Virus record (IMG/VR): IMGVR_UViG_3300048854_000060
Coordinates: 6,604 to 70,603 of that record
Reading direction: 5' to 3' (one strand)
Length of the DNA: 64,000 nt
From: a virus
Lineage: Duplodnaviria > Caudoviricetes
The notes beneath the pieces were generated by a model, which did no database searches, was not told where the DNA came from, and saw nothing but the letters and a program-made list of their open reading frames with translations. Both the position numbers and the translations under genes were made by a program. Below are positions 4,440 to 63,911 of this stretch, piece after piece (the first letter of the stretch is position 1; every line of letters begins with the position of its first letter).

Positions 4440-4619
4440 ATGAAATACAGCGAGTTTAAGAAGTGGCTCAAAAAGCAGGGCGCGACGTTCACGCCAGCCA
4501 AAGGTAGCCACTTCCGGGTAACTCTTAATGGCAAAACGACTATCTTCCCGGATCACGGATCAAAGGAAATCGGTACGGGGCTGGTCGAGACGATTAAGAA
4601 ACAACTCGGATTGAAATGA
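4440..4619 (+). CDS. hicA: HicA mRNA interferase toxin (59 aa, missing from ORF track)
   Basis: MKYSEFKKWLKKQG...KGSHF...PDHGSKEIGTGL..I.KQLGL; RBS GGAGG. Confidence 0.93.
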   Translation: MKYSEFKKWLKKQGATFTPAKGSHFRVTLNGKTTIFPDHGSKEIGTGLVETIKKQLGLK

Positions 4620-4689
4620 GGGAGGTGGCCCGAAAGGGCTGCTTCTCCAACTCGCTCTCATGCACCTCAGTACACGGAATGGAGTCCAT

Positions 4690-5109
4690 ATGTACGCGTA
4701 TCCTGTAAAAACCAAGCTGGACAGCAACGGGGAGTTGCTGGTTACCTTCCCGGATATACCGGAAGCAATCACGACCTCGGCCACTGCTGGTGATGTTGTC
4801 CGATTCGGAACGGAAGCGCTTGAGAGCGCGTTCGAGATCTACTTTGACGAGCGACGGGAAATCCCTGAGCCATCCAAGCCAAAGCGCGGACAGATGACTG
4901 TTCAGCTCTCTGCTTTGGTAACGGCCAAGGTTCTTCTTGCCAATGAGATGGTTCGACAAGGCGTGCGCAAGGCTGACCTTGCCAGGCGGCTGAACGTCCA
5001 CGGCCCCCAAGTCGATCGACTCCTGGATACCCGCCATTCGTCCAAGATCGATGCAATCGAGTCCGCGTTCGAGTCCTTGGGCAAACGGCTGGAAATTTCT
5101 GTCGCCTGA
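4690..5109 (+). CDS. hicB: HicB antitoxin with C-terminal HTH
   Basis: LVTFPDIPEAIT and KADLARRL...QVDRLLD..H.SKID motifs; downstream of hicA. Confidence 0.93.
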   Translation: MYAYPVKTKLDSNGELLVTFPDIPEAITTSATAGDVVRFGTEALESAFEIYFDERREIPEPSKPKRGQMTVQLSALVTAKVLLANEMVRQGVRKADLARRLNVHGPQVDRLLDTRHSSKIDAIESAFESLGKRLEISVA

Positions 5110-19614: not shown

Positions 19615-19641
19615 TCCTTCATTGAGATTCCCTTATGAGGA

Positions 19642-19694
19642 GCTGCGGCAGTCGGTAAGGGGCCGACGTTCGGATCGCGTATCCTAGCCGCAGC
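19642..19694 (-). ncRNA. Candidate three-way-junction RNA element
   Basis: 8-bp closing stem GCTGCGGC/GCCGCAGC plus two inner hairpins. Confidence 0.5.
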
Positions 19695-47744: not shown

Positions 47745-48548
47745 ATGGATATCAATGCACACCGCCGGGCGCGGTTACAGGAATTAGTCGACCAACGAGC
47801 TGCCGGTAACGTCGAGGAATTTGCACGCACGCACCCGCTCGCAGTTGGGGCTACCCGACTGCGGCAGATGCTCAATCCGAATTATCGGAACGGCAGCGGG
47901 TTCAAGGAAGGCGCGGCACGGAAGCTCGAGAAGGCGCTGAATTTGCCCGACCTCTATTTCGACCGTGGCATCGAGAGCGCGTTGGCTGCGGAGCACGAAA
48001 AAAGTATCCCCGATGCCTCGATCAGCGCACCAAATAGTGGCGTGATTGTTAAATCGAATGCGAGCGACATAAGTACTCTGGATGCAGGAGACCTACCAAA
48101 TCCAACATCCGAAGAGTTCGCTTTCGTGCCCCAATTAGATATCGCTGCGGCCTGCGGCAATGGCCGGTTTGAGGATCACGTCGTGGTCAAGGGCGGTCTG
48201 GCGTTCAAGAAATCATTTTTGCGCGAGAAAGGCGTCCCAGAACATGCCGCCAGGATCATCCACGCGTCTGGCGGCAGCATGTCTCCAACGCTTCAGGATG
48301 GGTGCGTGGTGCTTTTGAACCTCGCTGATACCGAGCCGCGAGACGGAAAAGTATTTGCCATTTGTAAGCCTGATGACGGCTTGGTGCTGAAGCGCCTCAT
48401 ATGGGATTTCCACCCCTCCATGGGACGCCAAACGTGGATTTTGAGAAGTGATAACCCTGACAAGATCGCTCATCCAGATAAAGTTTTGCCGCCCGATGAT
48501 CGGACAATGATTGCCGGCCGCGCTGTTTGGAACGACAATCAGCTATGA
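47745..48548 (+). CDS. cI: CI repressor with S24 peptidase domain
   Basis: N-terminal HTH; A.CG.G cleavage region; G.SMSPTL.DG; LVLKRL. Confidence 0.92.
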   Translation: MDINAHRRARLQELVDQRAAGNVEEFARTHPLAVGATRLRQMLNPNYRNGSGFKEGAARKLEKALNLPDLYFDRGIESALAAEHEKSIPDASISAPNSGVIVKSNASDISTLDAGDLPNPTSEEFAFVPQLDIAAACGNGRFEDHVVVKGGLAFKKSFLREKGVPEHAARIIHASGGSMSPTLQDGCVVLLNLADTEPRDGKVFAICKPDDGLVLKRLIWDFHPSMGRQTWILRSDNPDKIAHPDKVLPPDDRTMIAGRAVWNDNQL

Positions 48549-49229: not shown

Positions 49230-49256
49230 AAGCCCAGCCCCGAACTGGGCTTTTTC
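49230..49256 (+). terminator. Terminator of cI operon
   Basis: AGCCCAG/CTGGGCT stem followed by T5. Confidence 0.75.
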
Positions 49257-49863: not shown

Positions 49864-50076
49864 ATGCTGAAAGACATGCACATCGGCGTTAGCCCGCTGA
49901 CTCAAAAGATCGTCGCGTATCGCGGAAAGAACGGGGTTGCTACGTCGAAGAGTGATGACCTGACGAGCGAGGCGGTTTTCTCAGTTGCTCATCTGATTCT
50001 GATGAGCGGCGAGCCGGTGACAACAGTTCTTGACGGTGAAGTGTTTGAACTTCGGATTCACGCTAAAGCGAAATAA
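49864..50076 (+). CDS. Hypothetical protein
   Basis: GGAAG RBS; IGVSPLT..I.A motif. Confidence 0.6.
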   Translation: MLKDMHIGVSPLTQKIVAYRGKNGVATSKSDDLTSEAVFSVAHLILMSGEPVTTVLDGEVFELRIHAKAK

Positions 50077-51340
50077 CTGTCTCCAACGTTAAGGCCTCGA
50101 GCCTTACCGATGCAGATAGCAACGCAGTAGAGGAACACAGGCGCAAGGCGTCGCCTGGTTGGGCAAGTGATCTTTAACCTGACTAGAAGGCATACCAGTA
50201 ATGGCGGGGCCAACGCGCTACCCCGGAAAAGATCGGCGCCTATCAGTGATCCGCCTGACCGACAGCTTCGGTTAAAGAACGGATCACTGATTGATAACCG
50301 CCGCACCTGAGCCGGAGCCAGCATAGCTGGGAGTAGCCGGAGTGGTGCGGCCACGCAGTTTCAGTGGAGCGCCCTAGAGATCCAGTGGGCGCGGCCTGAT
50401 GTGTCGGCAAATCCGGCGTCGGGCGACACGAGTGGTAGCGCACTCAAAATCAAAAACGCATAACGAGCGAACCGGTGTGAACTCCGGTGGCAGGGTTGGT
50501 GAACCTAACCTCCCTGTGATGTTTTCCCGAAGTGGCGATCGGGGTATAGGGCGCTCCACTGAGACTGAATCGAATTAGCCGCCGGCACGCGAAAGCGTGG
50601 GCTTGTTGGGGACGCCCGGTAGCACCCAACCCTCAAGTGAGCACGGGGAATTTTGCTGAACGACGTACAGCAAGTAGCTCATTAGCTCCGTCCGACTTGC
50701 CGCCGTTAGCGGCTCTGAATCCCTGAGCGCCCGGTAGATAGGGCGGCGCAACGCAAAGGTCCACGTCCCATGCGAAGCGCGGCTAAGACGTGGCGCCGGT
50801 GTGATAGCGAAACGCACTGACAGGCCGGAAAGTACGGTCCACCTGGCGCCAATGATGAGCGCGTCGCCGGACGATAGTAACCGGCATGAATTGATGGGTT
50901 GCGGTCGCGCATCCCTTAACCGGTGGCCTGGTAATCAGGGAACCCGCATCTTCCGAGTCTTGCAAGGCGTAGGCCCCGGGCACGGGACAGGAAGTCGAAA
51001 AGCGGAGAAATACGGGCGCAACAGTTGGGCGGCTGACACTCCGGAAAGACGGAGACTGATTTCTAGTGCCCCGGGTTGGACCACGGCGAACTTGTCTATT
51101 CGTGCGGTGGCGCAGTTCGATTCTGCGCAGGGGCGCCAAAGAAATTGCACCCAGGTAGATGGGCATCAAACCCCATCGGTGCGTGCGGCTCGCTGATCGA
51201 CGAGCAATAAAGACTTGATCTCCGCGCCCCTTAAAGTCGGGCTTGGCAAGCTGCGGATGGGGCCACACGGACGGGCGCCTTGCCGGACGCGTCGCCGGAT
51301 ACGTAACCGGCACCACGATTTCTCTTACAAATGCTGATTC
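50077..51340 (+). ncRNA. About 1.3-kb highly structured non-coding region
   Basis: No credible ORF; 16-bp and 12-bp perfect inverted repeats; many hairpins; repeated motifs. Confidence 0.65.
51068..51138 (+). ncRNA. tRNA-like element 1 (71 nt, CCA end, no D-arm)
   Basis: GCCCCGG/CAGGGGC-G-CCA acceptor; CGCAG-TTCGATT-CTGCG T-arm. Confidence 0.6.
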
Positions 51341-51411
51341 TCGCGAGTCGGTAGCGTTAAGGGATATCTGAAGCGGCGTTTATACCGATAAGTACTACTA
51401 ATGGAGTAATC

Positions 51412-52557: not shown

Positions 52558-52832
52558 GGCGACTGACATGCAACCCAAAACCGATCTCGACGACTTTATC
52601 GAATTCACGCGCGCATGGCTCGACGAGCAGCAGAGCAAGCAGGATGCGCTAGATGAGGCGGCATGGCTCCGATTCCGCGCGAAGGTGCTGGGGCCGTTTG
52701 ATTGAATACTAAGCGACGGCCGCTGGAGTTTTGGTTATAAGCCGCAGCGGTGAGACGCCGCGACGAACTCAACGCGACACCTGCCGGGCCTGTAGTGGGC
52801 GCAAGGAGTGGTGCGACAGCCGGAGAGACGGC

Positions 52833-52983
52833 GCCCTGATGGATGCAGATGGCGGAATTGGTAGACGCAGGCGACTAGGGTAAATCGCAAATCGTTGATG
52901 AGCGAGGCGCCAGAACTCGGGATCGTAAAACCCGAAATCGCCGGCAGCTCCGGGTTCGAGTCCCGGTCTGCATCCATCAGGGC
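52833..52983 (+). ncRNA. tRNA-like element 2 (Leu-type D-arm, 63-nt anticodon loop, 17-bp acceptor stem)
   Basis: TGGCGGAATTGGTAGACGC; GGCGA/TCGCC; CCGGG-TTCGAGT-CCCGG. Confidence 0.8.
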
Positions 52984-56002: not shown

Positions 56003-56627
56003 GGTTCGCTGCTCATCGCTGAGCAAGATCATGACGGAGCCAAAGAACAAGGGCGAAGTCCTTTCAGTCGGCGCTAAGACCTATGTAGAAGAACTCGCCA
56101 AAGAGTTTGTGTATGGATTCCAGCGCGTTATTACGTCAAAGGAGATGGAGAAGGGCCAACTGGTTGAAAACCACTCCATCGAGTTGATCAACGACGTGTT
56201 TTTCACAAGCTACGTGAAGAACACCGAGCGGCGTGAGAACGAGTGGATTACAGGCGAATGCGACATCTACGTCCCCGGGAAAAAGATCATCGACGTCAAG
56301 TCGCCCTGGTCACTCGCTACGTTCCCTGCCACGGTCTTCGCAGGACAGGACAAGGATTATGAGTGGCAGGGCCGCGGCTACATGATGCTGTGGGACGTTG
56401 ACCAGTTCGAAATCAACTACTGCATGGTCAATACGCCGGACGAGCTGATCCGGTTTGAAGATCCGGGGATGCACTACGTCGACCAGATTGACCCGTCGCT
56501 TCGAATCACTCGCGTGCCATACGAGCGCGATCGCGACCTTGAGGAAAAGATCAAGGTCAAGGTCGAGGCAGCCCGCGACTACTTCAATAAGGTTATCGAG
56601 ACGATCGGCCTTGAACACGCGGCTTAA
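55995..56627 (+). CDS. YqaJ/lambda-exonuclease-like protein
   Basis: G...E, TGECD....IIDVKS, YEWQ..GYM. Confidence 0.85.
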   Translation: MLKVRCSSLSKIMTEPKNKGEVLSVGAKTYVEELAKEFVYGFQRVITSKEMEKGQLVENHSIELINDVFFTSYVKNTERRENEWITGECDIYVPGKKIIDVKSPWSLATFPATVFAGQDKDYEWQGRGYMMLWDVDQFEINYCMVNTPDELIRFEDPGMHYVDQIDPSLRITRVPYERDRDLEEKIKVKVEAARDYFNKVIETIGLEHAA

Positions 56628-62531: not shown

Positions 62532-62738
62532 ATGAGCATCGTCACCAATACTGAGCTGGTAGATCTGACCGGCGGACTCACGCAAGGCGCCGCACAAACG
62601 CGCTGGATAAAGAAGGCGCTCGGGATCGACGCGCCGCGGAAAGTCGACGGCCACCCGTTGCTGACATGGGAACAGGTCAACCGAGAACCTGGCGTCTCGT
62701 CGCGCCGTACTGCACCGAAGTGGAAAAACGCCGCATGA
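62532..62738 (+). CDS. xis: Excisionase-like protein (DUF4224-like)
   Basis: EL..LTG.....AQ.RW; ATGA overlap with integrase. Confidence 0.75.
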   Translation: MSIVTNTELVDLTGGLTQGAAQTRWIKKALGIDAPRKVDGHPLLTWEQVNREPGVSSRRTAPKWKNAA

Positions 62739-63757
62739 GAAAGCCCGCGCGCGATGGGCTCCTGCCACGCATGGAGCCGCGCAAAACCAAAAAAGGCTTC
62801 ACCTACCGCTATCACCCGGTCGGCGGGAAGCCAATCAACCTGGGCAGCGACCGTGTCGAAGCGATCCGCAAGGTGCTCGACATGACCGGCGCCGGCGACG
62901 ACCTCGGCACGATCGCGCGACTGTGGGAGCAGTTTCAGGAAACTCCCGGCTGGAAGCGATATTCGCAATACACGCGCGCTGACTATACGCAGTGCTCGCT
63001 CAAGCTACTGGAGATCTTCGGCGACATGCGGGCATCGGACATCGACGCGACCGACGTCGCGCGCTATCTGCGGAAGGAGCGCGCCGATGCACCGGTCCGC
63101 GCCAACCGCGAGGCCGCACTGCTATCCAACCTGATCGGCCTGGCGATCGAGCGCGGCGAGGCGAAGCACAACCCCTGCCGTGAGGTGAAGCGCAATGAAG
63201 AGCAGCCGCGCACTGAGGCGCCCGAGCCGGCCGATTTCGCTGCGTTTGCACAATGGCTTTCTGCGCAGGGCGGCCAGCGCGCAATGATCGGCATGGCGGC
63301 CGAGTATGCCGCAGGCGCAGGGAATCGGAAGGTTGAGTTTCTGGACCTCGCGTGGCCGCAAATCGACCGGGGAGCCGGCCACATCCGGATCAAGCGCGCA
63401 AAGCAGCGCGGCAAGAAACGAGGCGAAGTGATTGAGCAGATCGAGATCACACCGCATATCACTCACCTGCTCGATCGGCTCGACGCCGTTCGCAAGAACG
63501 ATTGCCTGTACGTATTTCCAAACCGATCAGGCAACGCATACACGCAAGCCGGGTTCAAGGCTATGTGGCAGAAATTAATGGTCGAGGCGCTGAAAAAGAA
63601 AGTCATTGCGCACCGGTTCACATTTCACGACCTCCGGGCCTATTACGTGACCCAACACAAGGCGGAACGCGGCGCACTTCCCGACCTGCACGCCAACCCG
63701 GCGACGACGGCGCGCGTCTATGACAGAAGCCGGATTGTGAAGCGAAAAGCGCTGTGA
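62735..63757 (+). CDS. int: Tyrosine integrase
   Basis: G.R..E, HDLRA, H...TT.RVY catalytic set. Confidence 0.93.
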   Translation: MRKPARDGLLPRMEPRKTKKGFTYRYHPVGGKPINLGSDRVEAIRKVLDMTGAGDDLGTIARLWEQFQETPGWKRYSQYTRADYTQCSLKLLEIFGDMRASDIDATDVARYLRKERADAPVRANREAALLSNLIGLAIERGEAKHNPCREVKRNEEQPRTEAPEPADFAAFAQWLSAQGGQRAMIGMAAEYAAGAGNRKVEFLDLAWPQIDRGAGHIRIKRAKQRGKKRGEVIEQIEITPHITHLLDRLDAVRKNDCLYVFPNRSGNAYTQAGFKAMWQKLMVEALKKKVIAHRFTFHDLRAYYVTQHKAERGALPDLHANPATTARVYDRSRIVKRKAL

Positions 63758-63861
63758 AACGTGGGAACGAAGTTGGAAAAACCCTTAAGAATCAGTGGTC
63801 AGTTTACAAATTGCGTTCCCATCCATCGCCCGCAAACCCTTATGATTACTGTATGGATATA

Positions 63862-63911
63862 CAGGATTGTGATTCCTGTTGTCGTGGGTTCGAGCCCCAT
63901 CAGCCACCCCA
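63862..63911 (+). repeat. att core: 3' part of tRNA-His(GTG)
   Basis: CAGGA-TTGTGAT-TCCTG anticodon arm, T-arm, acceptor 3' strand and CCA; no tRNA 5' half upstream. Confidence 0.9.

Follow-up and report, generated by a model that had tools for sequence, protein, structure and literature searches.

How should one read a stretch of RNA that keeps the end of a transfer RNA (tRNA), has no ordinary anticodon loop and forms part of a phage's untranslated early-operon leader? The question is raised by a 71-nt tRNA-like element at 51068-51138 (+ strand) of IMG/VR virus record IMGVR_UViG_3300048854_000060, where coordinates refer to the analysed stretch of 64,000 nucleotides (the window), which makes up most of that 70.6-kb record. 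The element is not a canonical tRNA, a transfer-messenger RNA (tmRNA) domain or an attachment-site (att) fragment. The explanation that we favour, tentatively and at something short of even confidence, is a tRNA-derived, non-decoding 'top-half' module acting in cis as a processing handle of the ribonuclease P (RNase P) type, and such a handle is more likely than a decoy.

Read directly from the sequence, the element has the anatomy that the original prediction had described, since its length of 71 nt, the acceptor with six of seven positions paired, the G discriminator with an encoded CCA, the TTCGATT loop and the missing D arm were all seen on the + strand. The 5' strand of the acceptor stem (51068-51074) pairs with 51128-51134, all six pairs being Watson-Crick, with C-G as pair 3-70 and a G.A mismatch as pair 6; the segment 51128-51138 comprises this acceptor 3' strand, the discriminator (51135) and the CCA (51136-51138). 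The T arm (51111-51127, supported by the shuffle test described below) has a 5-bp stem (51111-51115 with 51123-51127, a sixth pair being possible) and a canonical 7-nt loop at 51116-51122. There is no D stem, and in the sequence and the ARAGORN layout a 6-nt linker that includes GG (51075-51080) replaces the D arm. At the position of the anticodon arm, sequence and folding indicate an irregular hairpin with an 8-nt loop (51081-51110); the long central hairpin proposed earlier is a possible fold to this extent, although the minimum free energy (MFE) and centroid folds retain only its inner 5-7 pairs. Its loop lacks the usual U33/purine-37 frame. Of the features of a canonical tRNA, then, the T arm with its canonical loop, the 7-bp acceptor (with one G.A mismatch), the discriminator and the CCA are present, and a detector score, a D arm and a 7-nt anticodon loop with U33 and purine 37 are missing. 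The expectation that the RNA is unlikely to decode was supported by the absent D arm, by the 8-nt loop without this frame and by the absence of a tRNA-model call. A U-rich spacer with U at -1 (51055-51067, +) forms the 5' leader of the element and an A/U-rich trailer lies 3' of the CCA; part of the spacer is able to pair with the trailer, the predicted helix being weaker in L003, the related locus discussed below.

The 3' part of the element (T arm, 7 nt, G and CCA) is by itself clearly above chance and is a real tRNA-half signal. The pattern 'T arm + 7 nt + N + CCA' was expected 0.033 times per 64-kb window (both strands, 300 dinucleotide shuffles); adding a matching 5' acceptor strand with G.U allowed gained little (0.02 expected per window), and a hand estimate for an all-Watson-Crick 6/7 acceptor match came to about 0.05. 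Neither the 5' half nor the central hairpin is significant by itself. One further T-arm+NCCA match, chance-looking, was found on the minus strand at 56173 of the window.

The most informative context for the element is a widespread arrangement of a hairpin with a tRNA behind it. The window contains three hairpins consisting of UGACR, a 4-5-bp stem and a GARAG(U)A loop, all on the + strand and all in the early-left operon: copy 1 at 50817-50839 (GAAAGUA loop), copy 2 at 51033-51054 (UGACA, 5-bp stem and GAAAGA loop, 13 nt before the tRNA-like element) and copy 3 at 52815-52832 (GAGAGA loop, abutting a second tRNA-like element). The stem covaries across copies and loci, and upstream the hairpin is usually joined to a covarying helix around a variable hairpin. 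Exact copies of the 18-nt version of the hairpin (52815-52832) number at least 119 in IMG/VR, and the 20-nt version (copy 2) is present in 23 IMG/VR contigs, one of which (L194) has a tRNA-Ser 5 nt downstream. At 8 of 121 hairpin copies in unrelated phages (L081, L082, L089, L122, L130, L135 and L151 are examples of loci with such tRNAs), a bona fide tRNA begins 2-12 nt downstream on the same strand, where the tRNA density of these loci predicts 0.056 such cases (P about 2e-15); the case in L194 is additional.

The hairpin itself was covered by no Rfam family, and its sequence was found in no searchable paper. Its carriers are very diverse, no open reading frame (ORF) family being common to more than 7 of about 120 loci, and a phage protein partner for the hairpin was rejected on the same count. 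Two other readings were also set aside: as a sigma-70 promoter (UGACA serving as the -35), the -10 positions are poor by inspection and the tRNAs begin too close behind; as HK022 put or the annotated HK639 put-like RNA, the sequences are dissimilar. A put-like function of the hairpin is possible. Elsewhere, in an uncultured phage (L059, about 2050-2260), six or more hairpins of the UGACR/GARAGA type stand in tandem at intervals of about 25-35 nt, and in L188 and L192 two such hairpins stand back to back.

Non-canonical tRNA-shaped RNAs were also found behind the hairpin. In the window, the second tRNA-shaped element (52833-52983, +) directly abuts hairpin copy 3. Its D arm is good and class-II-like, it possesses a T arm, and its anticodon loop carries a structured insert of 56-63 nt; ARAGORN -i calls it at the default threshold, and it folds more stably than its shuffles (z = -2.95). 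A perfect 17-bp closing helix extends its acceptor and leaves it without a free CCA end. The outer helix recurs in L038, where inner pairs covary and the cargo differs, and IMG/VR yielded no second match for a 21-mer from the D-arm/anticodon-stem junction. A hammerhead reading of the UGAUGAG...GAAA strings repeated within and near 52833-52983 was rejected, the helices misfitting by inspection and no Rfam ribozyme matching. Behind the hairpin in L066 there is an acceptor and a T arm only, and in L076 and at a second copy in L135 the acceptor, D arm and T arm are all present, the anticodon arm being enlarged by an insert of 23-36 nt. All of these RNAs keep the acceptor/T-arm half, with the decoding half lost or remodelled. 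The 71-nt element shares both traits of this putative class, lying within 0-13 nt behind a hairpin on the same strand (here 13 nt) and keeping the top half above a remodelled lower half.

Directly 3' of the tRNA-like element is a 167-nt conserved structured RNA, here called module D (51146-51312, +; RNAalifold on relatives). Of the 34 pairs in the RNAalifold model, 11 show compensatory double changes; at several pairs some or all of the sequences have G.U, which would become A.C on the opposite strand and so argues that the RNA is read from the + strand. Module D was found in 16 distinct sequences (IMG/VR prophages and two Burkholderiaceae genomes), and most of its carriers are without the tRNA-like element. 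It also occurs in the Burkholderia phages phi644-2 (L058, at about 4640-4810), Bups phi1, vB_E192a and vB_PL1, where two hypothetical-protein coding sequences are annotated under the match in Bups phi1 and it is intergenic and unannotated in the other three; it is absent from Rfam.

The slot 5' of module D varies in content. It holds the hairpin plus the tRNA-like element in the window and in L003; in ten records it holds a four-way junction of about 105 nt with a closing helix of about 20 bp (L030:1642-1758 on the - strand and six other distinct sequences, with phi644-2 at about 4520-4630); the remaining relatives have two further sequence types; and in L036 the hairpin stands 15 nt from module D with nothing between. 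Given this variation among relatives, the 71 nt therefore look like an insertion between the hairpin and module D. A hairpin of the four-way junction (5-bp stem, GGCUGA loop) was also seen behind the widespread hairpin in the unrelated loci L079 and L190, and the ORF after the equivalent cargo slot in L038, about 2130 nt downstream of module D, has a start that by eye resembles a GIY-YIG homing-endonuclease motif.

L003 is the only other carrier of the tRNA-like element in any collection searched. Exact sub-patterns of the element in IMG/VR gave L003 plus chance matches only, a 'T loop + module D' pattern in a metagenome collection gave 7 matches, all unrelated, BLAST against the other compared loci (about 1.5 Mb) gave no further copy, and the tRNA-like part was unmatched in the INPHARED phage collection. 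Between the window and L003 there is one difference in the 71 nt of the element as against 13 in the 127 nt of adjoining conserved flanks (Fisher one-sided p = 0.015), the single difference being G to A at 51106, which is unpaired in the fold of the original prediction.

The phage is temperate, lambdoid and of the Paraburkholderia/Burkholderia type. On the + strand a CI-like repressor gene (47745-48548) is followed by two small genes, a terminator (49230-49252), small ORFs, an interval of about 1.3 kb (50077-51411) that has no credible ORF, early genes that include an exonuclease and a methyltransferase, and the integrase. This order mirrors cI-rex-terminator-PL of lambda, which places the tRNA-like element in the untranslated leader of the early-left operon. 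A minus-strand ORF (50783-51316) and a plus-strand ORF (50801-51196) were rejected as genes, having no PHROG match and being unconserved outside the RNA block; Pfam and PHROGs searches on the neighbouring small early ORFs were uninformative. Near the start of the ORF-free leader is a boxA-like sequence (50169-50178, +), which was found in 8 of 19 related leaders; two of the 19 (L032 and L035) have a 13-nt form, which we take to be the canonical boxA, about 337 nt upstream of module D. BoxA is a hallmark of leaders subject to Nus-factor antitermination, and the boxA-like sequence suggests Nus-dependent antitermination of the early-left operon.

Put together, these features suggest how a processing handle might work. 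An ancestral tRNA would have retained its acceptor stem, T arm and GCCA while losing the D arm and having its anticodon arm remodelled. Embedded in a long, structured, boxA-containing early-left (PL-like) leader RNA, the element fills the cargo slot behind the UGACR-GARAGA hairpin where other phages hold real tRNAs. RNase P would recognise the top half and cut at 51067/51068, and ribonuclease E (RNase E) and 3' exonucleases would act at the A/U-rich trailer after the CCA; these cuts would detach module D and the early genes from the leader upstream, whose end is the hairpin, and a stable 71-nt RNA might possibly be released. Bacterial RNase P recognises the acceptor/T-arm half of its substrates, prefers U at -1 and binds a 3' RCCA, and RNase E uses A/U-rich trailers after the CCA in pre-tRNAs. 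The handle role was rated the likeliest because the half recognised by RNase P, the U at -1, the encoded RCCA and the A/U-rich trailer are all present. The earlier proposal that the RNA could be processed by RNase P and 3' nucleases would likewise fit the anatomy as read from the sequence: the top half, the U at -1, the encoded GCCA and the slot of real tRNAs.

Several observations weigh against this reading. ARAGORN at default settings reported 0 tRNA genes and no tmRNA in the 64-kb window, and the Rfam tRNA model was unmatched at the gathering threshold and at E <= 10, even when 86 nt were searched alone. The ARAGORN score, which had been put forward as a check, gave a divided answer, with no call for 51068-51138 by default and a call only once the threshold was lowered (-ps80) or mitochondrial mode was chosen. 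With -mt at the default threshold the call is a D-armless tRNA with a 4-base 'anticodon' (the ARAGORN calls of the element as a whole giving 2-base or 4-base ones), and this mode is unspecific, giving 14 mostly spurious-looking calls on about 60 kb of comparable DNA. The fold of the 71 nt is no more stable than that of shuffles (z = -0.34), and acceptor pair 6 is the G.A mismatch. G73 and C74 are available to positions -1 and -2 as partners, a pairing of the kind that shifts or weakens RNase P cleavage in known pre-tRNAs. Most hairpin copies are followed by ORFs and not by tRNAs, so the hairpin has no need of a tRNA. The lower substitution rate of the element could be explained by more recent exchange of a sub-segment rather than by selection, and only two copies, near-identical, are known, too few to show covariation in the fold.

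Among the alternatives, a decaying phage tRNA gene fares best; we consider it a serious possibility, though on balance an unlikely one. The element would then be a functionless relic behind the hairpin that had lost its D arm and gained an anticodon-loop base. Its position, the same as that of real tRNAs behind the hairpin, would be expected of such a relic, as would the failure of the tRNA detectors, the mismatch in the acceptor, a fold stability not above that of shuffles and its rarity (two records known). A relic would not, however, be expected to be the best-conserved segment of the shared block (1/71 vs 13/127), nor to have its top half intact and its lower half remodelled, and the same pattern recurs independently in L066, L076, L135 and 52833-52983, where the perfect 17-bp clamp of the last is hard to explain by decay.

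A stable tRNA mimic acting in trans is improbable. Acting as a decoy or sponge, it would divert enzymes specific for the acceptor/T-arm half of tRNAs and so protect the host tRNA pool during phage growth, with T-loop or acceptor-stem tRNase toxins, tRNA-modifying toxins, the CCA-adding enzyme and EF-Tu as possible targets. Contact-dependent toxins of Burkholderia include tRNases that cut the T loop or the acceptor stem, and an intact top half with encoded GCCA, an early-expressed operon and a variable, cargo-like slot typical of counter-defence loci would all suit such a role. Against it, no tRNA-related enzyme genes were found nearby, only two carriers are known and anticodon-loop mimicry is absent. 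The more specific suggestion in the original prediction, a decoy for anticodon nucleases or synthetases, found no support; the element would be a poor decoy for anticodon nucleases because the normal anticodon loop, the part they recognise, is missing, and its context is that of a cis-embedded leader module.

Chance resemblance in a GC-rich, structured RNA region that has nothing to do with tRNA seems very improbable. The z value of the fold, the many false calls of ARAGORN in mitochondrial mode, the weakness of the 5' strand match as evidence and the second match at 56173 are all compatible with it. Only 0.033 matches were expected per window, however, the match sits exactly where tRNAs follow the hairpin in other phages, and a much stronger tRNA-shaped element lies behind the next hairpin copy of the same operon.

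The window also holds a genuine att fragment. The lambda-family integrase (62666-63757) is 91% identical to Paraburkholderia prophage integrases that adjoin tRNA-His, and just downstream of it is the 3' part of a tRNA-His (about 63860-63911, with the anticodon arm readable from about 63860). The last 28 nt (63884-63911; T arm, acceptor 3' strand and CCA) are identical to the tRNA-His in L008, which adjoins a related prophage integrase, and are a true, textbook att fragment of a prophage integrating at tRNA-His. That 51068-51138 might be a comparable scar, the 3' part of a host tRNA left by an old integration or excision with a 5' acceptor strand matching by chance, is hardly credible, and a host-derived scar was rejected for want of a host counterpart and for its location away from the integrase: statistical significance is limited to the 3' part, a true fragment does lie by the integrase and the short A-rich trailers behind the two fragments are alike, but the T-arm/acceptor 25-mer had no exact match among 185,579 species (one genome per species), the tRNA-like part had no BLAST match in 613 Burkholderiaceae/Paraburkholderia genomes or five related hosts, the integrase is 11.5 kb away from the element, whereas the genuine att piece matches the host tRNA-His in L008, and its place right behind the hairpin matches that of phage-borne tRNAs.

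If the element is a processing handle, it would link the boxA-bearing structured leader of Burkholderia/Paraburkholderia lambdoid phages (including phi644-2), the hairpin, nearly invariant in over a hundred unrelated phages, and the recurrent tRNAs and look-alikes behind it; it would offer a simple case of how temperate phages use host tRNA-processing enzymes to shape their early transcripts, and it would show tRNA genes recycled into structural RNA parts. Were it merely a decaying tRNA, it would still mark the cargo slot and help to define the context of the hairpin. A bolder extension, which we consider rather improbable as a whole, is that both modules (51068-51138 and 52833-52983) represent an undescribed class of non-decoding tRNA top halves behind a near-universal hairpin, in which obligatory RNase P cleavage would either free a put-like antiterminator hairpin that rides on RNA polymerase or release a tRNA mimic that titrates toxins or defences.

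Two other RNA features of the window were observed. A repeated motif, in which a UGAUGAGCG-like string precedes a GC-rich hairpin with a loop ending in GUAA, has copies at 50853-50886, 51281-51312 and 52896-52935 and a weaker copy at 49999-50019. The copy at 51281-51312 forms the 3' end of module D and that at 52896-52935 lies inside the insert of the second tRNA-like element, while the first copy (50853-50886) is matched by Burkholderia phage KL4, the match spanning 50817-50886. An Rfam int-alpA RNA was found at 19630-19694 (-; 48.1 bits, above the gathering score), distant from the integrase, and the ORFs downstream of it had no Pfam match.

Comparison with known systems begins with the real phage tRNAs behind the hairpin, which share with the element the strand, a distance of 2-13 nt, the acceptor, the T arm and sometimes an encoded CCA. 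They are, however, full cloverleaves that ARAGORN calls by default, those of L081, L082 and L089 being found by Rfam as well, whereas 51068-51138 is found by neither. The att-site 3' fragments of tRNAs are similar in being incomplete tRNAs that have a T arm, an acceptor 3' strand and CCA, but the element has no host tRNA counterpart, lies away from the integrase and possesses a pairing 5' strand. D-armless mitochondrial tRNAs likewise combine a D-replacement loop with acceptor, anticodon-like and T arms; the element differs in belonging to a bacterial virus and in implying a four-base 'anticodon'. The tRNA-like domain of tmRNA has an acceptor, a T arm, CCA, a stemless D loop and a long helix where the anticodon arm would be, all of which resemble the element, while G3.U70, a tag reading frame and pseudoknots are lacking in 51068-51138, and the beta_tmRNA model, whose threshold is 84, matched just the T arm and reached 8.1 bits.

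Other resemblances concern setting and processing. The boxB/put elements resemble the hairpin in placement only. Bacterial Y RNAs of the YrlA type are tRNA mimics whose RNA ends emerge from the anticodon side; they too comprise a non-decoding tRNA-like module within a larger structured RNA, but the ends of 51068-51138 emerge on the acceptor side and there was no Rfam match. The C4 RNA of P1/P7 and the CI RNA of P4 are small structured RNAs cut by RNase P from phage early-operon leaders, with repeated motifs around them. The setting in an untranslated early-operon leader and the repeated motifs are alike, whereas the window phage has a CI-type protein repressor; Rfam gave no match of the element to C4 or any other family, and an inverted-repeat search gave no partner for its loop, the only complement seen by eye being 4 nt to the GACA of the hairpins. 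The mascRNA at the 3' end of MALAT1 (Rfam RF01684) is, similarly, a non-decoding tRNA shape inside a long non-coding transcript; it is recognised by tRNA-processing enzymes and defines RNA ends. It differs in being eukaryotic and unrelated in sequence, and processing of the phage element is only predicted; the Rfam mascRNA model matched just the 17-nt T arm of the second element (52833-52983; 14.8 bits). In its proposed working the element may be likened to mascRNA and to the RNase P-processed leader RNAs of P4 and P1/P7. In sum, the conserved leader RNA of this phage holds at 51068-51138 a module that is real and rare, derives from a tRNA and does not decode, and that belongs to none of the known systems with which it was compared.

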